This document shows positions 70-51,292 of a stretch of 64,000 nt of DNA, in pieces. A model generated the notes under the pieces. It was not told where the DNA came from and searched no databases. It was given only the letters and a program-made list of their open reading frames with translations. Numbering within the stretch: the first letter of the stretch is position 1; each line of letters begins with the position of its first letter. The translations under genes and the position numbers were made by a program. Origin of the DNA: an uncultured delta proteobacterium. GTDB lineage: Bacteria; Desulfobacterota; Desulfomonilia; Desulfomonilales; Desulfomonilaceae. The stretch covers positions 1,472,001 to 1,536,000 of the forward strand of contig CAWBKB010000001.1 of NCBI GenBank assembly GCA_963789265.1. Reading direction: 5' to 3'.

Positions 70-846
70 ATGTGGGAAGCCATTGTGGCACAAGTGCTAA
101 AAACATTGGGCAACTACGCTTGGCGTTTAGTTGGAGCCCTAATCATCATCCTCGTAGGCTTCTGGCTAGCAAAATTGATCAGGAAGACTCTAATGCGGGC
201 ACTCACAACTCGAAAACTTGACCCTACGGTTATCTATTTTTCGGACAGCAGCCTTCAGGTTCTCCTGTATGGTGTGATTCTCATTGCAGCGCTCCACAGA
301 TTGGGAGTTGAAACTACCTCCCTAGTGGCGATGCTTGGAGCTGCCGGTCTTGCCATTGGGTTTGCTCTGAGACAACAAATGTCAAACGTTGCATCAGGTC
401 TGCTTATCATCATTTTCCGACCATTCAGGGTGGGAGATTACATTGACGGTGGGGGCTCCGCGGGCACAGTCGAGAAGATCGAATTGATGTCCACCGAGGT
501 TCTCACACCAGAAAACGTTACCGTAATCATACCCAATTCGAAGCTGACAGCGGACAAGGTCATCAACTACTCCCGTCGGGATACCCGCCGACTGAGAATA
601 GTAATCGGAGTGACCTATAAGGCTGATCTCAAGGCCATCAGAGATGCTCTGCAAAAAATCGTTGAGGGAGAGGATCTGATCCTGAAGGACCCGCCGCCAA
701 CCATCACTATAAAGGAGCTTGGGGACAAGGGGATAAAGATTGAAATCAGAATGTGGGTAAAATCTGAGGATTATTTGAAAGCCAAGGTCCAATTGAACGA
801 GAAGATTAAAGAACGATATGATTCTGAAGAAATCCCATTCCCTTAA
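70..846 (+). CDS. mscS: Small-conductance mechanosensitive channel (MscS family)
   Basis: Three TM helices, GAAGLAIGFAL, SNVASGL..FRPFRVGDYI and IPNS..VINYS motifs. Confidence 0.92.
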   Translation: MWEAIVAQVLKTLGNYAWRLVGALIIILVGFWLAKLIRKTLMRALTTRKLDPTVIYFSDSSLQVLLYGVILIAALHRLGVETTSLVAMLGAAGLAIGFALRQQMSNVASGLLIIIFRPFRVGDYIDGGGSAGTVEKIELMSTEVLTPENVTVIIPNSKLTADKVINYSRRDTRRLRIVIGVTYKADLKAIRDALQKIVEGEDLILKDPPPTITIKELGDKGIKIEIRMWVKSEDYLKAKVQLNEKIKERYDSEEIPFP

Positions 847-9985: not shown

Positions 9986-10306
9986 TTACCAGCGGGATCC
10001 TCCGCCGCCGCGTCCGCCGCCGCCGTCTCGCCTTCCACCGCCGCCGCCCCGAGAGTCGGTCTTGGGTTTAGCCTCGTTCACTGTCAGGCTCCTGCCGCCG
10101 AGATCCTTGGAATCCAGAGCCTGGATCGCCTTGAGACCTTCTTCGCGGTCGGACATTTCGATGAATCCGAATCCCCGAGACTTGTTGGTAAACTTGTCAA
10201 CGATAACCTTGGCGGATACTACTTCCCCGTAGGTTGCGAACAGGCCCTTGAGGTCTGCCTCACTGGTATCGAAGGACAGGTTTCCCACATAGATTTTAAT
10301 ACTCAT
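9986..10306 (-). CDS. RRM RNA-binding protein with Gly-rich tail
   Basis: RNP2 IYVGNL, RNP1 RGFGFIEM, GGGR tail. Confidence 0.95.
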   Translation of the reverse strand: MSIKIYVGNLSFDTSEADLKGLFATYGEVVSAKVIVDKFTNKSRGFGFIEMSDREEGLKAIQALDSKDLGGRSLTVNEAKPKTDSRGGGGGRRDGGGGRGGGGSRW

Positions 10307-16749: not shown

Positions 16750-17364
16750 TCGAGTACTTTCACGTACCTCGACTAATATTGCGAGTTCCTTTATCAGTGA
16801 ATCATATTCTACCTGGACTTTATCGGTGTAGCTCGAAGCAGATCTAATCACCCACATGCAACTCTATGAAAGGACGTCTCTTTCCGATAGTCAGATAACC
16901 AGAGCATTTGTCGAGTCGGAGAAAGCCATAGCGGAGCTGGATTAGATCACTTTCACGTTCCGGATGACGGGGAGCGTACTCAATTTAACTCTCCCGACGT
17001 CGGGAAAGTTCCGTCGGACGGGGTTTTCAGACGGGGCGAATTGAAAAAAATTAAGCCCTTCATTTTCAACAAGCGCCCCTTAATGGAGGATGAATCGTTT
17101 GTCTCTGGTCGTGCATCAAATACTCCAAGAGCCGAACGTTCGGAGGTGTGTACGATTAGGGGAGGTAAGTTCTCAATACCGTTCGTTTCTAATACATATG
17201 ATTCAGAAGATTTGAAGTTGAATGCTGCTTTGGCCTTAGGTTAAGGAGAATTCGATACTGCCCTGAATCATGGTAAAGATAAGAAATTTGTATAAAGACG
17301 CTGGAAGGACCAATGAGAACCAATGTAAGACGACAATCCTCTTCGATCATACTTCTCGGAGGAC

Positions 17365-18072
17365 ATGGAAATGAAAAACTTAAGCAAAGTAGGTATTGGC
17401 ACAATCCCCCTTCTATTACTTCTATTTGTGATTTCAGGAGTTGCTAGAAGTGAAGAGGTGCCTGCGATTCCAGCAGGTGCTAAGGCTTTCGTAGCCAAGG
17501 TTTCGGCAAATAGGAACTGTCTATTAGTACGTAGCCAGGCTGGCGAGTCTTCAAGAGTGGTCGGCTGTCTTCCGCGATGTAAGAAAGTAACACTGACAGG
17601 TAATTCAAACGATATATGGGTACAGATGTCTGCCCCCATATCTGGCTGGGTCAATGGGTTGTTCTTAGATCCTAATCCAAGAATATGTAATTTAGGGTCA
17701 TATGCCGGGGTAGCTCCATATGATGGCCCAGATCCCAGCCTGTATCCAGAGGACTATTTTGACTGGTGGAGTTCTCCTAGATGGGCTTGGTACTGGCCTT
17801 GGTGGTGGCATTACAGACACAATCGATACCATTTCTTCGCCCATCATCATCCTCGGAAACATCACGGTCACTACAAATATGTCCATGTTGGGCACCATCC
17901 GGCTCACCATGCTGTACGCCATCTTGAAAAACCTCACCAGGGGGGAAAACACGGTGGTAACAAATTCGCTAGACCTCACCATGGTGCCAAGAGATCCGCT
18001 GTGCATCACCATCGTGGTGGATTCCATAGAGCCGCTGGCCATGGTGGAAGACATGGTGAAAGACACCGATGA
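17365..18072 (+). CDS. Secreted SH3-like domain protein with Trp/Tyr segment and His-rich tail
   Basis: Signal peptide; CL.VRS....SRVVGCL..W....P.SGWV; His/Gly/Arg-rich C-terminus. Confidence 0.7.
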   Translation: MEMKNLSKVGIGTIPLLLLLFVISGVARSEEVPAIPAGAKAFVAKVSANRNCLLVRSQAGESSRVVGCLPRCKKVTLTGNSNDIWVQMSAPISGWVNGLFLDPNPRICNLGSYAGVAPYDGPDPSLYPEDYFDWWSSPRWAWYWPWWWHYRHNRYHFFAHHHPRKHHGHYKYVHVGHHPAHHAVRHLEKPHQGGKHGGNKFARPHHGAKRSAVHHHRGGFHRAAGHGGRHGERHR

Positions 18073-18455
18073 GCTAGTTTAATCAACCGAATCTGATGGG
18101 ATAGCATCTTCTGGGATTAAACGGCGCTTTAGGTTGGTCCTGAGCAGCCGACGATAGAGATGACCTGGTGGTGGATTCGTTCCTCGGATCTGGCACAATT
18201 GCGCTCGCTTGTCAAAGACTCAATCGAAGGATCGTCCGTCCCTTCTCGAAACGAGTATGAACGTGATGCATTCCCCGTCCTGTGATCCCGAAACAGTGAT
18301 AGACTATGCCCGTGGACATGACTTCCTCGCCTTCTCAGATTCGTTACAAAGCCAAGAAGGCAGGAAATCATGTCCTTTTTCACTTTTCAACTAAGGTACA
18401 CACTTACGCGAAGATCCGGAATTAAGAAACTACAATCATAGAAGAGTTAATCAAA

Positions 18456-18674
18456 ATGCACCAGAATTATAAGTGGTTGCATCAGAAACAATTGCTCTCT
18501 CAGTTGGAGAGATGGGGAAAAAATATTCAAGACCGCATCGAATGGCAACGTAAGAAAATTGACGAAGAACCGACGTCAGAGGAGGACGACAAATCCGTCA
18601 AGGAACCTCAATACCGAGAGCCTCTGGACTTGCTGAAAAGGAAATTACATAAAATGGCTAGATATGATTACTGA
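18456..18674 (+). CDS. Hypothetical protein
   Basis: 72 aa charged ORF just upstream of ncRNA candidate A. Confidence 0.45.
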   Translation: MHQNYKWLHQKQLLSQLERWGKNIQDRIEWQRKKIDEEPTSEEDDKSVKEPQYREPLDLLKRKLHKMARYDY

Positions 18675-18724
18675 CGTGATAAATTCAATCGTCTACGAAC
18701 CTCTTTGCTTGATAAAGGGCCTGA

Positions 18725-19010
18725 TCCCGACACCCGAAATGGTCTTTGCAACCGTTGCACAAAAGGGAGGCGATTCTGCCCAGGACAGAAATCACGGAAC
18801 CCTCAGGTTCAGGCAACCGGCAACGGTGAGTAAAAACGTGACCGGGTAATCACAACCCCCGGCCGGGACACCGTAAGGTGCATTGCCTCTTTTGGGTATC
18901 CCCCGGTAACCTTGAGAAAAAGAAGGCATCTCTCACGAAGCGTGAATCTCGGAAAGAGTCGTGAGAGGTAGCGTCTCCGGCGAAAGTCGGCGAGGTTATG
19001 AAGGATACCC
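18725..19010 (+). ncRNA. Candidate large structured ncRNA, copy A
   Basis: Homologous to 43314-43596 and 50488-50737; covarying stems and GNRA loops. Confidence 0.7.
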
Positions 19011-19042
19011 AAATTCCACAGACCCATTACCTGACCGTCAAT

Positions 19043-20155
19043 TTATTTCCTTATCTGCCCCGACGGTTCGTATGAATCCCCCGGACCGACCCCGTAGAAA
19101 AATACGACAAGTCGGTAGGGAGGCACGAAATCTCTCTTGTAAAACTCATAGACCGTGGGGCTGATTTTCTTGGGTTTGCCGGAAAAGCAAAGAGATATGA
19201 TCTCATCGGGGGTTTCTTTTTCGATCCGCAAGGTAAACGTTCCTATAGGCCCTTTCCAGTTCCGGCCGGTGCCCAGGATATACTCGACATTCTTCACGTT
19301 AAAATCCACTATCTCGGCACCTTTGGCAGCGAGGTCTTCGAGGTTCTTAGCTATTGCCTGCCTTGTTCGCTGGTCCAGACATGCCTCATGTCTACCGTGA
19401 TCAGCGAACCAGTGCGGTGTGGGTACCGGTACATGGCGATAAACTTTTTGATAGTCCTCAGATAAGTAGCCGAACTCCTTGTTATAGGCATTGCCGCCGT
19501 AAGTTCCGACGACTGGGTTGTAAGAAATCTCTACAACGGTTTCTTTTCCCGCAGGAAAGGTCTGCTCCTAAAATGCCGTTTCGGCGACCTCTAAGTCACT
19601 TATTTGCTTTCCCTTAGCCCAAATGAGATTGTATACAGCATTTTCTTGATCTTTCGTGAGATCAGCCTCATCAGCTTTACCAAAGATTTGTTTGTCGAAC
19701 AAACCGAGTTTCCTTAGCTGAGCCGTCACATCGTGATCAACAACTACGGCCTTGCGAACGACTCCTGGTGCTACCGAACGGCCATCTACCCAAACCTTAA
19801 AAGTTGCCATAATAAACGCAGAACCATCAGCATCCGGAAGCCAGGGACGGGGAGCTACAGGAAATGCGACCGTTGTTTTTATGTCTTTGAGAGATTCGTT
19901 TCGGAAGCGAAATTTAGCTCGTACTGCTTTTGTGGAAATCTCCAAAATCTCTTCGAGCAATCGGATGTCTGCACTCTTGGTGAAGGTGATTCCGCCTGCG
20001 CCAAGACGAGCGGTTGTTTCGTTGGAGAAAGCCTCAGTTGCCGATACCAATGTCGCTGTAACAATTATCAGTTCAGCGAGAAACACTCGAAAGAAAAGGT
20101 GCGTCACGTCGATAATTCTGGAGGTGTTCACAAAGGCCAAGCGATGATCTTTCAT
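19043..20155 (-). pseudogene. DUF4424-like secreted protein with in-frame TAG at 19568-19570
   Basis: GAGGITF..E.LEIS..FRF.N then *EQTFPAG...VEYILGTGRNWKGPIGTFTL in one continuous frame; TAG sits where W (TGG) is expected. Confidence 0.75.
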
Positions 20156-21498: not shown

Positions 21499-22446
21499 AT
21501 GAATCTAGCAGAACTTACAAAGATGACGGAAGCACAAGCTAGAGAATTTCTTGAGGAAGTTCGCTGGCACGGAAATCCTACTTGTCCTCACTGCGGGGGG
21601 ACTGACGCGTATCAACTCCGTGGAAGCGCAACGCGCCCCGGTGTTTGGAAGTGTTCGGCTTGTCGTAAGCAGTTTACTGTGACTGTGGGGACGGTCATGC
21701 ATCGCTCTCATCTCCCTCTTCGTACGTGGGTTATCGCTTTCCATCTTATGTCTTCCTCTAAGAAGGGAATTTCTGCCCTACAACTTCAAAGAGTCTTGGG
21801 AATTGTTAACTATAAGAATGCTTGGCATCTAGCTCATAGAATAAGGCTTGCAATGACAGAGGGCTTAGGAGTCTTCCCCTTGAAGGGAACCGTTGAAGTA
21901 GATGAGACTTATGTTGGGGGCAAGCCGAGAAAAGAGAGCAAGGGCAGCTCAGAGAAGCCAAAGAAAAAGTCTAAGCGTGGTCGTGGGACTGATAAGACTC
22001 CTGTGCTAGCTTTGGTAGAGAGAAACGGTAACGTAGTCTCTAAGCCCATAGAAAGAGTTAATGCTTCTACCCTCAAAGGTGCTATCAAGGAAATGGTTCA
22101 CAAAGATTCTTGTATCATGACCGACGAATGGTCTTCTTACACTGGTATTGGTGAGCATTTCAATGGTGGTCATGAAGTAGTGAAACACAATGACGGTGAG
22201 TTTGTCAGAGGAAATGCGAGCACCAATACGGTAGAATCTTACTTCGCACTGTTGAAGAGAGGCGTCCACGGAGCATTCCATCACGTGTCTAAGACACACT
22301 TACACAGATACTGCGATGAATTTTCTTTCAGGTGGAATCATAGAAAGATTGACGACGGTGAGAGGACAGTTTGCATTATTCAGGGTATAGGTGGAAAGAG
22401 GCTTGTATATGCTGATTGCAGGGGATTAATACATGAGCACAACTAA
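21499..22446 (+). CDS. IS1595 family transposase
   Basis: Zn ribbon CPHC/CSAC, SSKKGISALQL, VEVDETY, IMTDEW, NTVES and EFSFRWN motifs. Confidence 0.93.
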   Translation: MNLAELTKMTEAQAREFLEEVRWHGNPTCPHCGGTDAYQLRGSATRPGVWKCSACRKQFTVTVGTVMHRSHLPLRTWVIAFHLMSSSKKGISALQLQRVLGIVNYKNAWHLAHRIRLAMTEGLGVFPLKGTVEVDETYVGGKPRKESKGSSEKPKKKSKRGRGTDKTPVLALVERNGNVVSKPIERVNASTLKGAIKEMVHKDSCIMTDEWSSYTGIGEHFNGGHEVVKHNDGEFVRGNASTNTVESYFALLKRGVHGAFHHVSKTHLHRYCDEFSFRWNHRKIDDGERTVCIIQGIGGKRLVYADCRGLIHEHN

Positions 22447-30896: not shown

Positions 30897-31706
30897 TCAA
30901 AAGATTTCGGTAGCTGCGAGTCTGACGTGATCTGCGGTGACGATGGTGGATTGGTTGTTTGCCGCTGCGACGAGAGCGCCTCTTGCCAGATGGTTAGCCT
31001 TCCTGAATGTTCCTCCTGAGCCTTGATGGATTGCGGTGATCGCAGCGTCGTCAAAGAGGCTGGATTTGACGCCTGTGAGAGAGAGATGGTGAGAGAGGTA
31101 CTGTTCCATCTCCTGCCTGCTGACCGGCTCCATATGGCTGCGTGCGACGATTCGTGACGCGAGCGGAGCGGAGGTTTGATACATGAGCTTGTCGATGAGG
31201 TTGCTCCGCCCGGTCAGGACAATAGGCAACCACGGTTTTGAGTCAGCCTCGAAGACGGTGATGGTGTGGATCTCGGCAAAGACCTCCAGACGCATCAACG
31301 ATGCCTCATCGACCACCAGCACGATCTTCATCTTCTTTTCCAGGATCACTTCCCGTACTGCCTTCTTGATAAGGCGCACCATGATGGCTTTCTGTGATCC
31401 CGCCATGTGAATACCGAATTCAGCGAGGAAGAGCCGATAAAACTCCAGAATGGAGCCTGAGCAGGCAGTGATCCACACGGTCTTGTATTCGGATGGGTGG
31501 AGCTTTGAGATGACGTACCTGAGAGCCGTGGACTTTCCCGATCCCACCTCGCCGGTGAGGGTCGCAATAGCTCCCAACCTGACCGTATAGTCAAAGCGCT
31601 CTTTGATTGCTGCAATGTCTTGGGTTTCCAGAATGTCCTTGATGTTTATGTCGGTGGGGAACGCCTCCCGGCTCATGCCGAAGAAAGATCGATAGTTGGT
31701 GCTCAT
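30897..31706 (-). CDS. ExeA-like AAA ATPase (transposition regulator)
   Basis: Walker A GEVGSGKST, Walker B VLVVDEA; ATGA overlap with the transposase. Confidence 0.9.
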   Translation of the reverse strand: MSTNYRSFFGMSREAFPTDINIKDILETQDIAAIKERFDYTVRLGAIATLTGEVGSGKSTALRYVISKLHPSEYKTVWITACSGSILEFYRLFLAEFGIHMAGSQKAIMVRLIKKAVREVILEKKMKIVLVVDEASLMRLEVFAEIHTITVFEADSKPWLPIVLTGRSNLIDKLMYQTSAPLASRIVARSHMEPVSRQEMEQYLSHHLSLTGVKSSLFDDAAITAIHQGSGGTFRKANHLARGALVAAANNQSTIVTADHVRLAATEIF

Positions 31707-33004
31707 GTACGGTCCTTCTTTCCCCAAAGACTTCCACCTTGGTATTTTTCTGCCTCCTCGGAGGATTGAAGCTCTATATTTCGCCACTTGTCCCGTTTCA
31801 CCCGGCTATTGACGTGGATATTTACTGGGGCAGCCATGCCGAAAGAGACTCCGCCGAGCATGATCTCGACCTGATCCGGCTCTTGTTCGTGATATAGAAG
31901 GGCGACTTGTTTGCCTATGAGGGGGACAGGCGCTTCAAAGATCCTTCCGTCCAAGCTTATGGTCCTGTCTTTTGCTACTCTTCGTCGCACGGTCTTGCGA
32001 AAATAGTCCCTGAGATTGCGGGGAGTTTCTCTCAGGCATTCCATACGTGACGTAAACCGGGCAAAGGGAGTCTGGCCGGTGGAAGAATGTACCCGCTGGT
32101 GGTAGATGTCACCCAGCCAGAAGAAGAGGGCTTGATTCAGATCGGCAAGCGTAGTGCCTTTGAAGCCGGACAGAAAATCGCCCCTCACTGTGCGGAAGAA
32201 CCGCTCGATTTTCCCTTTGCCTTGTGGCTTGTACGGCCGTGCATGGATAAGGGCGATCCCGAGGCTCGCGGTGACATGCTCCAGGTGATGGGAACGAAAG
32301 GCGCTCCCATTGTCGGTATAGATTTTCCTGGGGAGTCCTCTGGTCAAGAGGGCTTCCTCAAGGGCTTTCAAATACGATGGAAGCGACTCGGTGAGATAAA
32401 ACTCGGCATGAGGAACCAGGCGAGAGTGATCGTCGATGAATGCAAGGAGATAGGTTTTCCTCTTCTTCCCCTCGTGCTCCACGCTCGGGCCATGCATGCA
32501 GTCGGACTGCCACAGATCGTTCGGTAACTCAGCTTCGAATTTCCGTCGATCTTCGAGCCTGGCCTCATCTCCCTTCATCAGACCATTGGTTCTCAGGAAG
32601 CGGTGTACCGTTGTAGCGGTGAGAGTGATGCCAGGCGATACCAGTCGTCTCTTGTTCATCTCACGGATCAGCCGGGCGACCGTTGCCTTGGAAAGCTCCG
32701 CCCTCAAACGGATCAAAGCCAAACCGGTCTCTTCATCTATGGCGCGGCTCTTCCCATGATCTGATCTATCATGGTTAGCCAGCGCCTCCAGTTTGCCGCC
32801 AGAGTCTTTGTAGAGCTTCACCCAGCGCAGGATAGTGCTCCGGGTAATACGGGTCTTGTCCGAGAATGGAATCACCCATTTTCGGTCGCACTTGTCCCTT
32901 ATGAGCCTCTCCTGCTCGCCAGGTTCGAGCGCCGCATGTCCTACGAGGTCATGAATCACCCCGAACCGAAACGTTGCAATCTGCTTTTTCTTATCTTCCT
33001 CCAT
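31703..33004 (-). CDS. DDE (rve) transposase with Mu-like C-terminal domain
   Basis: WQSDCMHG, FIDDHSR, YTDNGSAF and GKGKIERFFRT motifs. Confidence 0.93.
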   Translation of the reverse strand: MEEDKKKQIATFRFGVIHDLVGHAALEPGEQERLIRDKCDRKWVIPFSDKTRITRSTILRWVKLYKDSGGKLEALANHDRSDHGKSRAIDEETGLALIRLRAELSKATVARLIREMNKRRLVSPGITLTATTVHRFLRTNGLMKGDEARLEDRRKFEAELPNDLWQSDCMHGPSVEHEGKKRKTYLLAFIDDHSRLVPHAEFYLTESLPSYLKALEEALLTRGLPRKIYTDNGSAFRSHHLEHVTASLGIALIHARPYKPQGKGKIERFFRTVRGDFLSGFKGTTLADLNQALFFWLGDIYHQRVHSSTGQTPFARFTSRMECLRETPRNLRDYFRKTVRRRVAKDRTISLDGRIFEAPVPLIGKQVALLYHEQEPDQVEIMLGGVSFGMAAPVNIHVNSRVKRDKWRNIELQSSEEAEKYQGGSLWGKKDRT

Positions 33005-33108
33005 CGATCTGCCTCCTTGGGTATGTTGTCTGGGGTGGTACTCCCAAGACAATCCCAGGACAACGACACTCTTCGGTAGGGTGTGTGAGCGTCGATGGAC
33101 AGTGCAGA

Positions 33109-41368: not shown

Positions 41369-41884
41369 ATGTCTGAGGAAGTTGTAGTTATGTCACCGGC
41401 AAAGGCTAAGCTTCAACTGGCCTTGTTAAACTCATCAGCGGCGAATCTGGAAAAGCGGGATTTCATCGTCCGGTTTACCAATGCAGGGCTTCCACAAGAA
41501 ATTGTCGTGAGGCTCGATGAATGGTGGGACAAAACCAAAATCGTTGCGGGTGAGGTCATAAACATAGGGAAAATCCTGATCCAAAAAATCTGGGAATTCG
41601 TTGCTGCCACTCCCAACATGTTGATAGGTGCGGCTGTGGGTGCGGCTATCGGTGCGTTGGTGGGTTTGATTCCGTTCATCGGCCCTCTATTAGCACCCGC
41701 CGGTATGACTATCGGGGCAGTCCTGGGTGGACTCTGGGGCTTTGAACAGGACAGGGCTAATCGTGGTGACGTCATAAAAGGGGGACCCATCGGCGTAGCT
41801 GAAAACCTGGTTGGTCTCGCTAAGGAATTTTTCAAACTCTTCGCGGGAATAATGATAGCCCTCAAAGACTACTTTGCAGCTTGA
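41369..41884 (+). CDS. Glycine-zipper membrane protein
   Basis: IGAAVGAAIGALVGLIPFIGPLLAP. Confidence 0.7.
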   Translation: MSEEVVVMSPAKAKLQLALLNSSAANLEKRDFIVRFTNAGLPQEIVVRLDEWWDKTKIVAGEVINIGKILIQKIWEFVAATPNMLIGAAVGAAIGALVGLIPFIGPLLAPAGMTIGAVLGGLWGFEQDRANRGDVIKGGPIGVAENLVGLAKEFFKLFAGIMIALKDYFAA

Positions 41885-43092
41885 TTTTACACTCAGGGGG
41901 GCGGCTCTTACAGCCGCTCCCTGAAGAAATCCGAGAGGATTTTAGGGAGGTATGTGGGGTGGAATCCAGTAAAACCAATCAACCTACCAGTGGTGTAGTG
42001 GCTCAGCCACAGAAGAAGACGGTGTCGGCAAAAGAGATTGTAGCGGATATTAAATCAGGCATGTCCGACAGATCTCTTGAGCAGAAGTATCAACTCGATC
42101 AGAGCGGTCTCGACAATTTATTTAGCAAGTTGATCTCCGCGAAATTTATCACGGAGGAGGAACTACGTGGGCGAAGGAATGTTGTGAAAGACCAGACGAT
42201 TCCTGTTCCTTCCACTATACGACAAAATGGAACCGTTGCGATTCCTCAATCACAGACTACGACTACGAGCCTTATGTCGTTTGGCTTGCACGATGTGAAA
42301 ATCGTCGCAGTAGGAGCAATCCTGGGTGGAATCAGTGCAGCAGTAGTGACCTCATACTGGGGAACCGCAAAGACTTGGACAAAATGGCTGGGCAAAGCTC
42401 ATGGAGGCACATCTTGGAAATGGATCATAGCATGCGCAATCATCGGAGCAATCCTTGCCTTCTATGTGGACTGGATTCTGAAAAAACGGCGGATAATGAG
42501 GACTTCAAATCAACCACTACCCGTAACAAAGGCTTCCCAATCCGGTAAGGTCAGTGCGGAAGAGATCGAGAAAGCCATTATAATAATGCAGCGCGCCCGC
42601 AGGGACATGTTCGGTATTGCAGGCGACATAGGGATCCTTGGCATAGGCGCAGCAGGAGGCGGGATAGCCGCGACAGCGGTAGCAGCCTTCTTTGGGGCCA
42701 CAAGGATTTGGGGGGTTACCACGGCGGCAAGATGGATGGGATTCAGTTTTCACGGAGGTACACCTTGGAAATGGATCGTAGGGTGTGCAATCGTCGGAGC
42801 AATTCTGTCCTTCTCAGTTAGCAGGCTTGTTAGAAGTGGCGCACAAGGTGACGAACGGAGGAAGAGGAATATAGATGAACTGAAGAGAGAGATCGAGCAA
42901 CGAAGGAAAGCAGCCGAGAAGTCCACGGTGGATAAGGACAAGTTTGATAAGCTCGTACAATCCCTTACGATGCTCCTGAGCAATGGTAAAATGACTCCCG
43001 AAGAATCCGATGGACTCATCAACGGGATTAAGGGCGGCAACATAACCTACGAGTTTGCTTTTGCGTCCGTTGAAGAATACCTCAAAGAATAG
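41881..43092 (+). CDS. Membrane protein with the recurrent helical domain and a duplicated Gly-rich TM module
   Basis: HGGT.WKWI..CAI.GAIL occurs twice; start uncertain. Confidence 0.7.
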   Translation: MILHSGGRLLQPLPEEIREDFREVCGVESSKTNQPTSGVVAQPQKKTVSAKEIVADIKSGMSDRSLEQKYQLDQSGLDNLFSKLISAKFITEEELRGRRNVVKDQTIPVPSTIRQNGTVAIPQSQTTTTSLMSFGLHDVKIVAVGAILGGISAAVVTSYWGTAKTWTKWLGKAHGGTSWKWIIACAIIGAILAFYVDWILKKRRIMRTSNQPLPVTKASQSGKVSAEEIEKAIIIMQRARRDMFGIAGDIGILGIGAAGGGIAATAVAAFFGATRIWGVTTAARWMGFSFHGGTPWKWIVGCAIVGAILSFSVSRLVRSGAQGDERRKRNIDELKREIEQRRKAAEKSTVDKDKFDKLVQSLTMLLSNGKMTPEESDGLINGIKGGNITYEFAFASVEEYLKE

Positions 43093-43134
43093 CTGCTTGG
43101 AGGGAGAAATAGTCCCCAGAGCGGGCTGAGTCCG

Positions 43135-43311
43135 ATGAAGAAAACCATACCAGTAGAAACGATCACTGCGGATATCAAGAATGGGATCCCGGACGCGGAA
43201 CTTATGAAAAAATACGGACTGCCGGAAGAAAGCTTAAAGAAGGTGTTTGACAGGCTGTTGAGGGCTGCGTGTAATGGGTCTCGTCACGCAGAGGTAGAGG
43301 TTAAAGAATAA
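43135..43311 (+). CDS. 58 aa protein made of the recurrent helical domain
   Basis: MKKTIPVETITADIKNGIPDAELMKKYGLPEESLKKVFDRLL...; read manually. Confidence 0.65.
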   Translation: MKKTIPVETITADIKNGIPDAELMKKYGLPEESLKKVFDRLLRAACNGSRHAEVEVKE

Positions 43312-43313
43312 CG

Positions 43314-43596
43314 CTCCCGATGACCTGAAGGATCTCTGCAACGGTTGCAGACGGGGAGGCAATGAGTCGTAGGAAAGCAATGATGGAACCCGGCGTTCAG
43401 GCAGACCCTCCAAAGGGGTCCCGTGAGAACATCACTCAGTAACCACTCTGAGCTACGGCAGGTGCGTTGGCTCTCTGGGGTATCCTCGACAGCCCTGGAA
43501 AAAGAAGGCAGCTCTCGTGGAGCCTGGACCTCTCCCAGTGAGGGTCGCGAGAGTAACGCCTCCGGTTCATTCCGGCGGGGTTGTTCGGGGGATACC
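43314..43596 (+). ncRNA. Candidate large structured ncRNA, copy C (most diverged)
   Basis: Same stem architecture as copies A and B with compensatory substitutions. Confidence 0.7.
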
Positions 43597-43743
43597 AAAA
43601 CTACTTCTAATGATGCTATTGGGCATCAACCAGAGTTTACAGGATTCTCTTTGATGAACTTCTGACGTAAGGGAATATATAGTTGGAGTCCTTTCAACTC
43701 TTCAGCATCGGCCAGCCAGTTTCGGGGCAGCCAATAAGCCTAT

Positions 43744-43876
43744 TTACGGTTGATAGCCTTTTTCTGGGCTTTCCTTGGCTCCGTGCGCCTTCAGGAGTCG
43801 TACTATCTCGACTTCACCCCTTTTCGAAGCCTCCGCCACCGCCGTCTCACCCTTGGCATTGACATCCGCTCCCTTG
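43744..43876 (-). pseudogene. 3' remnant of the DUF4424-ankyrin gene, separated by the transposon
   Basis: KGADVNAKGETAVAEASKRGEVEIVRLLKAHGAKE continues VKVLLD from 46819. Confidence 0.85.
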
Positions 43877-44046
43877 TGTAGATTTTCAAATTGTATGGAC
43901 TGAAAAGGGGTGATTTTCTCAGAATAGATTGACCTGGGGAGAAAAAATATCAGAATAGATGGACGGGATGAATGAATAGGGCGGTGGCTTGACGGAGCTA
44001 CCGCCCGAAGCATGTACGGGCCATAAGGCCCCTCAAAGGTATTGTC

Positions 44047-44493: not shown

Positions 44494-44598
44494 TCTGCGA
44501 AGCCCGTCGATCCGGTTGCACCCTACCGAAGAGTGCCGTTGTGCTGGGATTGTGTTCGGGGTACCACCCCAGGCAACATACCTAAGGAGGGAGACCCG

Positions 44599-45901
44599 AT
44601 GGACGAAGATGAGAAAAAGCGGATTGCGGCCTTCAGGTTTGGCGTGATTCACGACCTGGTGGGGAATGTGGAGCTGGAACCCGGTGAGCAGGAGCGCCTG
44701 ATACGGGAGAAGTGCGACCGGAAATGGGTGATACCCTTTTCACAGAAGACTCGTATTACCCGCAGCACAATTTTGCGCTGGGTGAAGCTCTACAAGGAGT
44801 CCGGCGGCAAATTGGAGGTGTTGGCCAACCGAGGGAGGTCTGATAACGGCAAGAGTCGCGCCATAGACGAAGAGACCAGTTTGGCTTTGATCCGTTTGAG
44901 GTATGAGCTTCCCAAGGCTACCATAGCCCGTCTCTTGCGTGAGATGAACAAGCGACAACTGGTCTCTCCGGGGCTAGTCCTTACTAGATCAACAGTACAC
45001 CGCTTCTTGAGCAGCAATGGTCTCATGAAGCAGAATCAGATCACGGCCGAAGACCGCAGACGGTTTGAAGCTGAACTGCCCAATGATCTGTGGCAGTCGG
45101 ATTGCATGCACGGGCCAAAAGTGGATCATCAGGGGAAGAATCGAAAGACCTATCTCATTGCTTTCATAGACGACCATTCCAGGTTGGTTCCTCATGCCGA
45201 GTTTTACCTCTCCGAGTCACTCCCGTCGTTTCTGAAAGCCCTTGAAGAAGCCCTCTTGACCAGAGGGCTACCCAGAAAAATCTATACGGACAATGGAAGT
45301 GCCTTTCGCTCCCATCATCTGGAACACGTCACGGCAAGCCTTGGGATTGCTCTCATCCATGCAAGGCCGTACAAACCACAGGGAAAGGGAAAAATAGAGA
45401 GGTTCTTCCGAACCGTGAGGGGGGACTTTCTGTCTTGCTTCAAAGGAAATACGCTTGCCGAGCTGAATCAAGCCCTGTTCTTCTGGTTGAATGACATCTA
45501 TCATCAGAGAATACACTCCTCAACAGGGCAAACCCCCTTTGCTCGGTTCACTTCAAGAATGGAATGCCTGAGAGAAGCCCCTCACAATCTCAAAGACTAT
45601 TTTCGCAAGACCGTGCGGCGCAGAGTAGCAAAGGACAGGACCATAAGCCTGGACGGAAGGATCTATGAAGCACCTGTCTCACTCATCGGGCGTCAGGTGG
45701 CCCTTCTGTACCACGAGGGGGAACCGGAGCGAGTAGAGATCATGCTCGGCGGGGTCTCCTACGGTATGGCCACCCCCGTAAACCTCCACGTCAATTGCCG
45801 GGTGAAGCGGGATAAGGTACAGCAGCATTAGACTGGAAGGCACGGAACAATCCGAAAAATACCAGAGTGGCGGCCTCTGGGGGAAGAGAGGCCGTAAATG
45901 A
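44599..45901 (+). CDS. DDE transposase, +1 frameshift at 45816-45817
   Basis: Same motifs as copy 1; removing one G restores ...EKYQSGGLWGK and the ATGA overlap with the ATPase. Confidence 0.9.
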
Positions 45902-46707
45902 GTACCAATTACCGCTCATTTTTCGGTATGACTCGTGAGGCTTTCCCAACGGATATAAGCGTCAAGGACATCATGGAGACTCAAGATATCAAGGCTATCA
46001 AAGAGCGCTTTGATTATACGGTCAGGCTGGGGGCCATTGCGACCATCACCGGTGAGGTGGGATCGGGAAAGTCTACAGCGCTCCGGTACGTTATCTCGAA
46101 GCTTCACCCCTCAGAATACAAAACCCTCTGGATTACTGCCTGTTCAGGCTCGATCCTGGAGTTTTATCGGCTCTTTCTCGCTGAATTCGGCGTACACATG
46201 GCAGGCTCGTCAAAAGCGGTGATGGTACGCCTCATAAAAAAGGCAATACGGGAAATCATCCTTGAGAAGAAGATGAAAATCGTGCTGGTCGTCGATGAGG
46301 CGGGCCTATTGCGCCTGGAGGTCCTTGCCGAACTCCACACCATCACCCAATTCGAGGCTGACTCAAAACCCTGGCTCCCCATCATCCTTACGGGGAGGTC
46401 GAATCTCATCGACAAACTCATGTATCAAACATCCCTGCCGCTCGCTTCAAGGGGCGTCGCACGAACCCACATGGAACCTGTAGAAAGACAAGAGATGGAG
46501 CATTACCTACTCCATCACCTTGCTCTCACCGGCGTCAAATCCAACCTCTTCGATGATCCGGCCATCACAGCCATCCATCAAGGCTCAGGAGGAATATTCA
46601 GAAAGGCAAATCATCTGGCAAGAGGGGCTCTCATCGCAGCGGCCGACAGCCAATCTACCCTCGTTACCGCCGACCACGTCAGGCTGGCTGCCACGGAAAT
46701 CTTTTAA
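45898..46707 (+). CDS. ExeA-like AAA ATPase
   Basis: GEVGSGKST and VLVVDEA motifs. Confidence 0.9.
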   Translation: MSTNYRSFFGMTREAFPTDISVKDIMETQDIKAIKERFDYTVRLGAIATITGEVGSGKSTALRYVISKLHPSEYKTLWITACSGSILEFYRLFLAEFGVHMAGSSKAVMVRLIKKAIREIILEKKMKIVLVVDEAGLLRLEVLAELHTITQFEADSKPWLPIILTGRSNLIDKLMYQTSLPLASRGVARTHMEPVERQEMEHYLLHHLALTGVKSNLFDDPAITAIHQGSGGIFRKANHLARGALIAAADSQSTLVTADHVRLAATEIF

Positions 46708-48300: not shown

Positions 48301-48536
48301 ACTCACGGTCACAGGCTAACCAATGATTCTTACCTGTCCTTCGAAGGGACACCTAGCCTCAAGGCGTCACCGCATGTTGTCCTTCCGTACTCGTCATCTC
48401 GTTTGTCAGCTCCCCCAGCGGATATTCTCGACAAAATTGACCTCCTGAGAACCACGTAGGGCGACGATCTGGGTCAGAGCAAGGGGTAAGGCAGGGGGCA
48501 ACAGAGGTTGCGGGAAATCGCATCTGAGTGGCTCGT
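48301..48536. repeat. ~230 bp non-coding repeat F2, copy a (copy b 50758-50984)
   Basis: Shared ccaatgatt..tacctgtccttcga.gggacacctagcctcaa, tgtccttccgtactc, ccagcggatattctc and aaatcgcatctgag.ggctcgt. Confidence 0.85.
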
Positions 48537-48722: not shown

Positions 48723-49205
48723 ACGTCAAGTATAAGACACAGAGCCATACAAGGCATCAAAGCGGGGGACGAATTTTCGGTGTCACGCACTTTCACGGAA
48801 CAGGACGTGATGCAATTTGCGGACTTGTCCCGAGATTACAACCCCGTCCATCTGGAGGATCGATTCGCCAAGGCAAAGAAGTTCGGTGGAAGGATCTGTC
48901 ACGGTCTTCTCGTGGGGAGCATGCTTACCGAAATCGGTGGACAGATAGGCGTCCTCGCCTCTCATATGGACTTCGTGTTCAAGAAGCCGGTCTATTTTGG
49001 AGATACTGTGACCTGCTGTTGGACCTTCACTGAGATTGACCAGAAAGGTCGCGCCAAAGCACAGGTAGTGTTTCAAAATCAAGACGAGATCGTCGTACTC
49101 ACTGCCACTGTCAAAGGAATTATACCGGGCGTGCCGGAAAGAGCAATCTTGAAGGCTATGGTCGAAGAAGGAGATCCAACAAACAAGCTTTCCGGGAAGT
49201 TGTAA
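48723..49205 (+). CDS. MaoC-like dehydratase (apparent ACG start codon)
   Basis: DYNPVH...FGGRICHGLL, F.KPVYFGDT; GGAGG RBS before the in-frame ACG. Confidence 0.85.
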   Translation, partial: TSSIRHRAIQGIKAGDEFSVSRTFTEQDVMQFADLSRDYNPVHLEDRFAKAKKFGGRICHGLLVGSMLTEIGGQIGVLASHMDFVFKKPVYFGDTVTCCWTFTEIDQKGRAKAQVVFQNQDEIVVLTATVKGIIPGVPERAILKAMVEEGDPTNKLSGKL

Positions 49206-49229: not shown

Positions 49230-49267
49230 TAACGCCTCCGCTAGTCGGCGGGGTTGTCGGGGGATAC
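49230..49267 (+). ncRNA. 3' fragment (copy D) of the candidate structured RNA
   Basis: taacgcctccg..cggcggggttgtcgggggatac matches the 3' end of copies A-C. Confidence 0.65.
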
Positions 49268-49340
49268 GAAGACGATAGAATAATCACCATCGAAATCCCC
49301 AATCCTGCAGCCGAGCTATCGCTTCGTTCAAAACGCCTTT

Positions 49341-50405
49341 CTAATCTTCGAGGCGTGGCACTGTGTCTTCGGCAATGAGATCGTCAAGAATAGCAATCCC
49401 TTTGATCGGGTGTTCGTTGAGATGCGAGATCATGGGAAAGATGTGTTTCTGAGCAAACTCCAGAGCGAGCAGAACATGGCTGAAGAACCACGTCTTGTCT
49501 TGGGGCTCCCTGTCAGCCACATTCATGCACTCTAAGATTTGCTGCCATTTACTTCGCCGCTTCGACTTCTTACCTGCGAAAAGGCTCCTAGCCTGCCCGT
49601 GAGCAACTGCTGAGCGGATGTCATAAAGGTGTCCTAAGAGCGTTGTCATTTGCGTGAAATTGAGTTTTCGAGCCGTCTGATCAAAACCCCACAGATCAGC
49701 ATCCTTCACGAATTTGGTGTAATAGGCTGAGCCAATCAGTCTGAACTGCACAGAGATTTCTGCCGAGGCTCCTTGAACAAACAGACTTTCAAGACCGGCA
49801 ATCATGAGAACGACGGCTTCGCAGAGGTCCAAGTAATCGTAATAACGATATTTCCCAGAAAAACCGTTTATAGTCCAAAAAGACTTCTGGAGGAGCACGA
49901 TGCTCCCCGCCAAGGATTCGTTGCTGTGAAAGAGATCAAACCAGGCTTCAACAGAGGAATTAGAAGGAATCCAGTCCTGCTGATCGGGTCGCCGATTAAG
50001 CGAGAAACCGCTGTGAGAAGATGATTCCGTGAAAATCTCTTCGTCAGTGGCTTGGCCCTCTTTTTTTGGCTGGCCCAGCATGAAAAGCAGCTTCAGCTCA
50101 ATATCTTTTGGCAGATTCTTAGGATACGAGAAATAGAATATTTTCCGCGGACGACGATCATTCACGAACAAGGCAAGCAAAATGTTTTCCAAATCCTGGA
50201 CTGCTCGGTAAATCTCGGCGTCTTGAAAGTTGAGCCGAATTTGTCGGTTAAAAATCATGGAGAAGGAGCGGTCATCGACGCACCAATCGGCGAATCTGAA
50301 CGAGGAATATTTTGCAGTAGTGTAAGAGCCAGGCCCCACTACTGCCGAAAGCATAAAGGTTTCTTGCTCAATTTGCTGCCGCTTCAATGTTCCTACCTTC
50401 AACAT
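49341..50405 (-). CDS. Apea-like HEPN domain protein
   Basis: AGLESLF...EIS.QF and LYDIRSAVAHG (RxxxxH). Confidence 0.7.
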   Translation of the reverse strand: MLKVGTLKRQQIEQETFMLSAVVGPGSYTTAKYSSFRFADWCVDDRSFSMIFNRQIRLNFQDAEIYRAVQDLENILLALFVNDRRPRKIFYFSYPKNLPKDIELKLLFMLGQPKKEGQATDEEIFTESSSHSGFSLNRRPDQQDWIPSNSSVEAWFDLFHSNESLAGSIVLLQKSFWTINGFSGKYRYYDYLDLCEAVVLMIAGLESLFVQGASAEISVQFRLIGSAYYTKFVKDADLWGFDQTARKLNFTQMTTLLGHLYDIRSAVAHGQARSLFAGKKSKRRSKWQQILECMNVADREPQDKTWFFSHVLLALEFAQKHIFPMISHLNEHPIKGIAILDDLIAEDTVPRLED

Positions 50406-50487
50406 CTCGGTACTGTCTTGGTCGTTGTGTTGGATTGGAGCTATAGATACGACATGGAAAGAAACTTCGCAATATGATGAAGCGAAA

Positions 50488-50737
50488 GGGAGGCGATTCT
50501 GCCCAGGAAGGAAATCACGGAACCCTCAAGTTCAGGCAACCGGCAACGGTGAGTGCAAACGTGACCGGGTACACGGGTACTGCGAAGGACCCACCCCCGG
50601 CTGGGACTTGACATCGCCTCTCAAGGGTATCTCCGACAGCCTTGGAAAAAAAAGGCCCCTCCGCGAAGCCTGAACCTCGAAAGAGTCGCGAGAGTAATGC
50701 CTCCGACGAAAATCGGCGGGGTTGTTGAGGGATACCC
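50488..50737 (+). ncRNA. Candidate large structured ncRNA, copy B
   Basis: Homologous to copies A and C; perfect GTTCAGGC/GCCTGAAC long-range complement. Confidence 0.7.
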
Positions 50738-50757
50738 AAGTTCACTTGCCCTTCATG

Positions 50758-50984
50758 ACTCACGGGTTTACCCAATGATTTCTACCTGTCCTTCGATGGG
50801 ACACCTAGCCTCAACTCTCGGCACTTTGTCCTTCCGTACTCATCATCTCGTTTCTCAGCTCTCCCAGCGGATATTCTCAAAAGATGGACGCCCTGAGAAC
50901 AACGTAGAGCCACGATCTGGGGTCGGTGAAGGGTAAGGGTCGGGAGAAAAAGCACGACCCGCAAATCGCATCTGAGAGGCTCGT
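50758..50984. repeat. ~230 bp non-coding repeat F2, copy b
   Basis: Alignment with 48301-48536. Confidence 0.85.
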
Positions 50985-51292
50985 GGCTGCCGCGCTTCAG
51001 GAGCGTATTGGAGAGGCATCGTGTCGCTACCGGAAGTGGGCGGAGGGACATTTCGGGTAGAATATCTCCCTTCGCTTTGTCATGCGGGTCCGCTTAATAA
51101 CCATCCTGAAAAAATATTCACCTTATTTCATAAGGGGATTTTGTATATTTCGACTCGCTGCAAGTTGCATTCTAAACATGTTGACTTACATTCTAGTCTA
51201 CCAACCTTGTCTCTCAGATAAGACGAACCTGCCAAACATCTCTGTCACGGAAAACGTCTTTCTTACATCAACACTCAATGGAGGTGTGCAAC

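Follow-up and report, generated by a model that had tools for sequence, protein, structure and literature searches.

What is the sequence of some 255 nucleotides (nt) that lies three times between the genes of a single 64-kb stretch of a Desulfomonilaceae genome? The stretch (hereafter the window) comprises 64,000 nt of contig CAWBKB010000001.1 (positions 1,472,001 to 1,536,000, forward strand) from an uncultured delta proteobacterium. A first-pass annotation, made from the letters alone, had marked out in it a candidate novel and large structured non-coding RNA (ncRNA), multicopy and with covariation. The follow-up described here bears this out: the element is real, multicopy, strand-specific, non-coding and structured, with covariation. 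It belongs to an uncatalogued, lineage-restricted family of ~255 nt that has two domains and a conserved, elaborate fold.

Copies were placed with two covariance models, one per domain (R1 for domain 1 and R2 for domain 2), and the boundaries of the element were set by where conservation begins and ends (Table 1). Three copies (A, B and C) and a fragment lie at the places first named for them, as both the covariance models and a 12-mer confirm, and they form one family. Mean column identity among A, B and C is 73%, and a direct-repeat scan of the window recovered them as families D7, D11 and D12. The 12-mer, CGGCGGGGTTGT, occurs three times in the window (43573, 49246 and 50714) against 0.12 expected. 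The fragment holds it exactly (49246-49257), gives a partial R2 match of 21 bits that is good over the 3′ third only, and starts 25 nt past a MaoC-like gene (48780-49205). The starts originally given for A and B, 18725 and 43314, stand; their first ~40 nt, however, are a leader that copy C lacks and are thus not part of the common core. This conserved leader, with the palindrome TGCAAC-N-GTTGCA, is present in 8 of 42 aligned copies (A, B, L183, L184, L174, L019, L035 and L199). Copy B begins 3 nt past the stop codon of a 58-aa open reading frame (ORF; 43135-43311), and copy C has a longer P4 loop in domain 1.

Table 1. Positions in the window of the element, its parts in each copy, the helices of copy A and two adjoining genes
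Feature	Position	Strand	Details
Copy A	18725-19015; core 18762-19015	+	Placed by covariance models, one per domain
Copy A, 5′ leader	18725-18761	+	TCCCGAC..GAAA..TGCAACCGTTGCA palindrome/hairpin P0; optional
Copy A, domain 1	18762-18892	+	R1 match, 141.3 bits
Copy A, domain 2	18890-19015	+	R2 match, 109.9 bits
Copy B	43314-43602	+	Leader 43314-43350, domain 1 43351-43476, domain 2 43474-43602
Copy B, model scores	43351-43602	+	R1 90.3 bits, R2 118.3 bits
Copy C	50485-50742	+	Domain 1 50485-50623, domain 2 50621-50742; no leader
Copy C, model scores	50485-50742	+	R1 115.9 bits, R2 120.0 bits
Fragment	49230-49272	+	3′ third of domain 2: P10 and 3′ strands of P7/P6
P1, copy A	18767-18774/18882-18889	+	GAGGCGAU/AUUGCCUC
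P2, copy A	18779-18783/18863-18867	+	CCCAG/CUGGG; helix added in follow-up
P3, copy A	18792-18796/18837-18841	+	UCACG/CGUGA; encloses P3a and P3b
P3a, copy A	18802-18804/18828-18830	+	CUC/GAG; helix added in follow-up
P3b, copy A	18816-18819/18824-18827	+	GCAA loop (ACCG-GCAA-CGGU)
P4, copy A	18842-18846/18858-18862	+	CCGGG/CCCGG; loop length varies among copies
P5, copy A	18869-18872/18877-18880	+	GUAA loop
P6, copy A	18894-18901/19003-19010	+	Domain 2
P7, copy A	18907-18914/18991-18998	+	Domain 2
Purine linker, copy A	18914-18927	+	Near-invariant GAAAAAGAAGGC
P8, copy A	18930-18937/18960-18967	+	CUCUCACG/CGUGAGAG; carries P9
P9, copy A	18948-18950/18956-18958	+	GAAA-capped, behind conserved AGCCUGAAC
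P10, copy A	18977-18981/18986-18990	+	GAAA loop (CCGGC-GAAA-GUCGG)
354-aa ORF	49341-50405	-	Between fragment and copy C; bracketed by direct repeats of the element
Split DUF4424 gene	19043-20155 (19568-20155 + 19043-19309)	-	Convergent with copy A; PF14415 positions 2-133 and 239-304

In the source genome (G000; 6.06 Mb, nine contigs) the element is found in 11 places in all by nhmmer. Outside the window these include a further full copy just upstream (C1:1469994-1470385), its exact duplicate on C5, a copy on C8, a weak copy on C6, and 5′-only and 3′-only fragments on C7 and C8. The duplicate lies within a 4.6-kb segment that is present twice, inverted and 100% identical (G000:C1:1468299-1472899 and G000:C5:416435-421035). 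Besides the element copy, genes for a cyanate lyase and for an MscS protein lie on this segment, the latter extending into the window (70-846); the repeat could be a recent duplication or an assembly artefact.

The ~255-nt core has 12 helices in its two domains, four GNRA-type loops and purine-rich junctions that hardly vary. P1 (GAGGCGAU/AUUGCCUC) closes domain 1, inside which lie P2-P5. In domain 2, the GGGUAUCC/GGAUACCC pairing extends into a P6/P7 stem of ~19 bp with a single bulged base, opening into a three-way junction with P8/P9 and P10. The helices proposed in the first-pass annotation are all present in copy A and all hold across 19 to 48 copies. Each has at least two pairs changed on both sides, including GAGGCGAU/AUUGCCUC, GGGUAUCC/GGAUACCC and CUCUCACG/CGUGAGAG; the exception is the CUC-GGAAA-GAG hairpin, with one pair changed on both sides in each alignment.

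This structure was tested on 19 copies from 11 genomes, in a plain MAFFT alignment made without reference to any fold. Standard pairs filled 91.4% of its 1183 pair cells, compared with 85.7 ± 0.5% in shuffles, and 23 of the 66 pairs had changed on both sides, compared with 14.4 ± 1.9. When the 3′ partners were slid by 1-3 columns, pairing was only 36-41%. Two alignments fitted to the models lean toward the model; they agree in direction. For domain 1 (A8, 42 copies), 92.0% of cells were paired, 23 of 34 pairs were changed on both sides, and so were 174 cells against 54.9 in shuffles. For domain 2 (A7, 48 distinct copies) the figures were 92.6%, 19 of 35 pairs, and 57 cells against 21.7. Over all three alignments the slid controls gave 31-50% paired against an observed 91-93%, and none of 500 shuffles of the MAFFT and model-fitted alignments reached the observed pairing or covariation. 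The covariation claimed from the copies in the window is therefore kept at depths of 19, 42 and 48 copies. Across copies, P4 reads CCGGG/CCCGG, CUCAG/CUGAG or CCACG/CGUGG, and P3 reads CACG/CGUG, GAUG/CAUC or CGAG/CUCG; copy B alone offers the compensatory variants CGUAG/CUACG in P2 and GAUG/CAUC in P3.

Other pairings were tried and set aside. GGAGGCG in the 5′ strand of P1 is perfectly complementary to an invariant CGCCUCC in domain 2, yet changes on the 5′ side are never compensated, and this alternative pairing is only a possibility. An AGGC/GCCU pairing returned by RNAalifold in domain 2 involves invariant bases only and was replaced by the covarying P8.

The preference for the + strand, claimed at the outset, is found again in bit scores, wobble pairs and folding energy alike. 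One copy scored 128.6 bits when read on its own strand, whereas the opposite strand gave 18.0 bits. Paired cells held 271 G-U against 96 A-C, an excess that is strong in domain 2 (210 against 50). Copy A folds at -103.3 kcal/mol (z = -4.0) on the + strand, and its - strand has z = -2.7. All three copies in the window are overlapped by minus-strand ORFs (72-104 aa), which are largely ruled out as genes. The best alignment-anchored frame is free of stops in just 13 of 37 copies, copy lengths modulo three are distributed 13/12/12 and the spacing between two invariant motifs 13/9/6, and BLASTP sorts the translations of ORFs over the element into several clusters unrelated to one another. Taken together, the compensatory pairs, the strand asymmetry and the lack of a coding signal are those of a structured functional RNA and make the element a candidate for that class.

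None of the known families that we considered accounts for it. No match to any of the 4227 models of Rfam 15 was found at gathering score over the whole window. At E-values up to 10, the region 18600-19150 gave only chance-level matches to mir-373 (15.3 bits; gathering score 69) and Afu_300 (14.6 bits; gathering score 40), and six further loci (9142 bases) gave none at E-values up to 5; the initial failure to recognise a known family is thus upheld at both levels. The phage and plasmid collections searched by blastn held no match to the element, and we found no published description of this RNA in Desulfomonile or Desulfobacterota among open-access papers and bioRxiv. Moreover, a Pfam scan of ~300 neighbouring ORFs revealed no reverse transcriptase (RT), IscB/TnpB, IS110-type transposase or tyrosine or serine recombinase, in line with the early remark that no RT or IscB/TnpB gene is adjacent. 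A HEARO/IscB or TnpB omega-RNA is not indicated, as the neighbours scanned include no OrfB/TnpB or IscB-type domain; the protein of L021:278-1438 is HNH-like at its N-terminus, where it resembles endonuclease effectors of PADLOC, and no RuvC part was reported for it. Nor does the element qualify as a group II intron or retron, with no RVT_1 beside any copy and no Rfam intron or retron match; three carrier genomes (G027, G039 and G057) have no RVT_1 match anywhere. An IS110 bridge RNA or IS1111 seekRNA is likewise not supported, as no IS110-family transposase domain was found among the scanned neighbours. The bridge RNA folds with two large internal loops, whereas our element has multi-way junctions.

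The element was found in one family of genomes only. By the domain-2 model it is carried by 13 of 70 genomes and 6 of 26 genera of its own family. Within its own genus, three of six other species have it, and the three without are 84-88% complete. The 52 genomes of the sister family of the class gave no match, and with the domain-1 model none was found in the 146 genomes from other families in a phylum-wide sample; in that sample of 151, only the window's own genome was positive, two own-family and two sister-family genomes being negative. A degenerate pattern run over one genome per species gave 97 stretches, of which 80 were scanned with the model (L150-L166, with short flanks, being left out) alongside seven viral stretches. 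Twelve loci proved real, none of them among the seven viral contigs, and all 12 are titled Desulfomonilaceae bacterium, Desulfomonile tiedjei or uncultured delta proteobacterium, in keeping with the first-pass suggestion of Desulfobacterota. Among 26 metagenome contigs with the pattern, domain 2 was present in 20 and domain 1 in 15. The covariance-model search of Desulfobacterota genomes and metagenomes that had been proposed for this element thus yields homologues in its own family and in the majority of these contigs. Carrier genomes have 1-14 domain-2 matches, plus fragments, and the sequencing runs listed as containing the stretch are three DNA soil-metagenome runs from one study, with no RNA run among them.

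Copies within a genome are hardly more alike than copies from different genomes. Mean identity is 74.9% within genomes (37 pairs, top 84.1%) and 73.0% between them (263 pairs, top 89.0%), and the copies of one genome are scattered over the tree; the within-genome exception is the exact copy in the 4.6-kb segmental duplication. These comparisons therefore indicate that there was no recent burst of copies and that the copies are old. That the diverged copies are still ~92% paired argues for selection on the copies themselves, not decay after a burst. Several types of flank are each common to more than one genome: the leader type; a type following the 58-aa ORF (copy B, L017 and L062); a type at the 3′ end of DUF4424 (copy A and two G025 contigs, 77-78% identity); and a type with a second repeat of ~230 nt after the element (copy C and L029). 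Thus, copies persist or move together with their neighbours. In one metagenome contig (L185:1-1232), ~620 nt that include a 136-aa ORF separate a full domain 1 from the 3′ end of another domain 1, which is joined to domain 2; this looks like a recombinant or interrupted copy, from recombination between copies.

Neighbour orientation was read from mechanical ORFs of at least 75 aa, some of them surely spurious. In 27 of 33 loci the element is followed by an ORF on the opposite strand, and in 17 of 29 it is preceded by a co-directional one; therefore, most copies sit in convergent intergenic space. Such placement says nothing on orientation, since either orientation looks alike there. Copies often begin 20-100 nt behind the upstream stop codon (copy B 3 nt, L031 21 nt, L184 33 nt, L199 45 nt). 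The neighbours themselves are varied and include genes for EamA, MFS, TauE, chromate and PBP transporters, SDR, DUF4424, ankyrin and Sel1 proteins, as well as CBAH, radical SAM, Crp and AraC-type genes. Where a contig has two or more domain-2 matches, these lie on one strand throughout in eight of nine cases, spaced 1-7 kb apart, as in G038:C492 (17.4, 19.3 and 22.6 kb), G038:C135, G027:C15 and G030:C45; two copies on G038:C111 have opposite orientation. On G000:C1, four copies and the fragment fall within 53 kb.

What, then, might the element do? The first-pass inference, of a new ribozyme-like or RNP-scaffold RNA or a structured non-autonomous mobile element, is supported in part, as regards novelty and structure. 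We tentatively favour, at a confidence just short of even, an accessory-genome structured ncRNA that travels with gene cassettes and is neither a gene-specific cis-regulator nor an active transposon. The element would work as a folded RNA, transcribed from the + strand either as the tail of a co-directional upstream gene or from a promoter of its own. Contacts between tetraloops and purine junctions would give it a compact tertiary structure, and it would serve as a stable RNA module, whether as a scaffold for protein binding or as a self-assembling or ribozyme-like RNA. It would be carried along with accessory gene cassettes, and new copies would arise by duplication and inter-copy recombination, leaving 5′ and 3′ fragments and genes bracketed by direct repeats. 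Action as a folded RNA is suggested by a fold whose GNRA-type loops and purine junctions exceed what a terminator or mRNA stabiliser needs, and by the pairing that each diverged copy has kept. A gene-specific regulator would hardly have neighbours as varied as these. In L009 and L192 the core is preceded, at a distance of 4 nt, by TGATAGAAT, and L182 and copy C have similar hexamers (all read by eye); this resembles an extended -10 and is a possible promoter for some copies. Those abutting an upstream stop codon may be made as the tail of the upstream gene.

Several points weigh against a folded, cassette-borne RNA. The promoter was read by eye and in a few copies only, the flanks examined show no intrinsic terminator after the element, and no partner protein was found. 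The fragments, patchiness, island clustering and co-orientation would equally fit a mobile element or a recombination site. Under a master-copy model, selection that acts only on the masters can by itself produce compensatory differences between copies. Finally, the G-U excess is weak in domain 1 (61 G-U against 46 A-C), and folded single-stranded DNA tolerates G-T wobble, so that a same-strand role at the DNA level is compatible with the excess.

The first alternative, which we regard as unlikely, is a non-autonomous mobile element whose fold, as RNA or as + strand single-stranded DNA, is the substrate of an enzyme acting in trans (RT, HUH/Y1 transposase or other), and which spreads into harmless intergenic sites at gene 3′ ends and then decays. 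The 1-14 copies per genome with their 5′-only and 3′-only fragments, the patchy occurrence even among species of one genus, the enrichment in islands rich in insertion sequences (IS) and the mostly convergent sites, where insertions harm least, would fit such an element. So would the co-orientation, as expected with replication-strand insertion bias, and the other abundant intergenic repeat families of carrier genomes. However, apart from the 4.6-kb duplication there are no near-identical copies (within-genome identity reaches 84%), neither terminal inverted repeats nor target duplications were seen at the ends (the latter read without an empty site for comparison), the flanks of several subfamilies are conserved between genomes, and no RT, transposase or recombinase is consistently nearby. 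As partner enzymes, RT and Y1_Tnp were both rejected because their presence does not track the element: RT occurs in only 10 of 13 carriers (and in 23 of 57 non-carriers), G027 having two full copies and no RT match, and Y1_Tnp, although found in all 13 carriers, is in 45 of the 57 non-carriers too. The search for a clean empty site was unsuccessful. The module upstream of copy A (17000-18163) is itself repeated elsewhere, a DUF4424 paralogue without the element was too diverged to align across the junction, and for the locus at G000:C1:1.470 Mb no clearly orthologous region was seen in the six other genomes of the genus. GC skew in the source genome was too weak and noisy to call a replication-strand bias.

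Miniature inverted-repeat transposable elements (MITEs) are non-autonomous transposable elements, and like them our element lacks coding capacity, is multicopy, has truncated copies and lies in IS-rich regions. It differs in that its 5′ end (GGGAGGCGAU) and 3′ end (GAUACC) are not inverted copies of each other, its copies share 57-89% identity with none near-identical, and compensatory changes in individual copies preserve its structure. Since there is no within-genome excess of identity and terminal inverted repeats were not seen, we lean against a recently active MITE-like element.

Less likely again is a generic cis-acting 3′-end element, a more elaborate counterpart of the repetitive extragenic palindromic (REP) sequences and bacterial interspersed mosaic elements (BIMEs), which, as the tail of the upstream mRNA, would block 3′-to-5′ exonucleases, help termination or insulate convergent genes. 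The usual position just behind a co-directional ORF and facing a convergent gene, the unrelated neighbour families, as expected of a generic module, and the long ~19-bp closing stem all speak for it. Yet 255 nt with 12 helices, near-invariant unpaired purines and four GNRA-type loops exceed what stabilisation or termination needs, no U-tract follows the element, and at four loci it stands directly upstream of a co-directional PAS hybrid histidine kinase gene. REP/BIME sequences are imperfect palindromes of ~35 nt, present in hundreds of copies and linked to the RAYT (Y1) transposase. Our element resembles them in being dispersed, strand-specific and placed at gene 3′ ends or between convergent genes, and they too fold as RNA when transcribed. 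In contrast to them, it is about seven times longer, has a branched two-domain fold with conserved unpaired bases, exists in tens of copies and not hundreds (1-14 per genome), is ~75% alike between copies and has no Y1/RAYT link. As a test of class membership, the ~255-nt core and the copy number place it outside REP/BIME, with only the position at gene 3′ ends in common.

A bolder form of the RNA reading is doubtful. In it, the element would act by itself as a new class of RNA machine within the accessory genome. It would be a ribozyme or self-assembling RNA with a fold that either leads to its own multiplication or captures and exchanges the gene cassette next to it; alternatively, it would supply the RNA half of an RNA-guided system not yet recognised, with the protein encoded elsewhere. 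This would explain the co-oriented copies, the bracketed genes and a recurrent trio in nine loci, in which a gene for an HU/IHF-like protein lies one or two genes upstream, followed by a variable gene and the element.

The same three observations underlie the view that copies mark cassette boundaries, as attC-like recombination sites for an unidentified recombinase that would exchange the genes between co-oriented copies; we consider it very improbable. Co-oriented copies lie 1-7 kb apart, the trio recurs, and single genes are bracketed by direct repeats, namely the 354-aa ORF between the fragment and copy C (49230-50742), which has no match in Pfam, PADLOC or NCBIfam, and, in the same layout, a CBAH gene between two 3′ fragments at G000:C7 (L037). 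Integron attC sites are single hairpins of ~60-140 nt. Like them, the element is folded strand-specifically, lies on the 3′ side of cassettes, is regionally co-oriented (eight of nine contigs) and varies in sequence while keeping its structure. Unlike them, it is a 255-nt branched fold of two domains and not one imperfect hairpin, with no Phage_integrase among the ORFs scanned and no dense arrays. Spacing is loose and many copies are solitary, the G038:C111 pair is in opposite orientation, and the scan of ORFs in the window and five arrays gave neither a tyrosine nor a serine recombinase.

Lastly, a coding function in a minus-strand small ORF, or a role as 5′ leader or riboswitch of a downstream histidine kinase gene, can be all but dismissed: although the ORFs span every copy in the window and the co-directional PAS kinase gene follows at 60-160 nt in L238, L234, L036 and L181, the frame, length and spacing analysis and the differing ORF clusters largely refute the former, and for the latter the kinase context is limited to four of ~45 loci while downstream ORFs are mostly convergent.

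Some of the genes adjoining the element deserve mention. The DUF4424 gene convergent with copy A is probably a pseudogene, judging from its split frame; an intact DUF4424 gene stands at the corresponding place in L025. Four otherwise dissimilar proteins encoded upstream of copies (in the window at 41881-43311, in L031:895-1467 and in L199:1534-2766) start with a DI(K/R)SGMxDxxLMxKY motif, or over ~40 aa (I/L)xxDI(K/R)xGxxDxxLxxKY..L..(F/L)..L. This could be a small N-terminal domain that has so far gone unrecognised; in Pfam, a weak DUF433 match for the 58-aa ORF was the only result. A link to defence was not apparent: among 20 neighbouring proteins only the HNH-like protein of L021 matches PADLOC, and NCBIfam gave nothing useful.

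The window is a plastic island with IS1595, two IS21, Prim-Pol, AbiU2-HEPN, Schlafen/AlbA-like ATPase, Ser/Thr kinase and ankyrin genes. The IS1595-type transposase gene is at 21499-22443 (+), and two IS21-type pairs, each of an rve transposase and an AAA_22 helper, lie in opposite orientation (30900-33052, -; 44533-46707, +), the second adjoined by an ankyrin gene fragment (43744-44013). The same island has a gene for a small RRM_1 RNA-binding protein (9989-10306, -). It also contains other repeats. Directly 3′ of copy C is a second non-coding repeat of ~230-300 nt (50745-51060) with no sensible ORF. It recurs 2.4 kb upstream (48317-48536, 80% identity), in L029:1620-1950 and on C8 (G000:C8:120003-120106), ~1.3 kb from another copy of the main element, and in G025 the element has this flank too. 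Between a gene for a His-rich protein and copy A is a third repeat, small and dispersed, of ~60 nt (18353-18423), found at 82-94% identity in G000 (C5 and C6), G025 and G027; a longer piece (18224-18423) recurs in G028 and G030. The module at 17000-18163 carries the gene for a secreted His/Trp-rich protein of 235 aa, whose L008 relative has a weak SH3_3 match. Its copies have differing flanks and are found at G000:C1:2415333-2416138 (93%), in G030 (88-89%) and in G027 (79%). About 50 nt before the window, L038:9573-9950 (G000:C1:1471573-1471950) is another intergenic repeat of two adjacent units of ~150-200 nt, with no Rfam match at E-values up to 0.1. It is far commoner than the element, with dozens of matches in G025 and several in G000, G026, G027, G028 and G030.

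Where does this leave the folded accessory-genome RNA that we favour? GOLLD, ROOL and the HEARO/IscB omega-RNA are large structured bacterial ncRNAs carried on mobile or accessory DNA. Like these, the element exceeds 200 nt, has many helices, GNRA-type loops and conserved junctions, and is patchy, lying in accessory or mobile regions and sometimes in several copies per genome. Unlike them, it ranges over one bacterial family, was not found on phage or plasmid records and has no Rfam match to any of the three; it is shorter than GOLLD and ROOL and, in contrast to HEARO, has no IscB-type or other recurring protein gene beside it. The orphan large structured ncRNAs of mobile and accessory DNA are the nearest comparison class. 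By fold and setting, the family appears to stand beside these orphan RNAs and to be related to none of them.

In summary, a family that folds into 12 helices, has no relative in the catalogues and brings no protein gene with it is a concrete candidate for a new RNA function. To our knowledge, few bacterial RNAs exceed 200 nt and have many covarying helices, and those of this kind that are understood are mostly ribozymes, cores of ribonucleoproteins or guide RNAs. The R1 and R2 models, together with ~50 aligned copies, could seed an Rfam-type family. The lifestyle is unusual, with several old and diverged copies per genome, set in plastic islands of one soil and sediment lineage. Should the element turn out to be no more than a selfish repeat, it would be unusual among repeats for conserving an elaborate fold.

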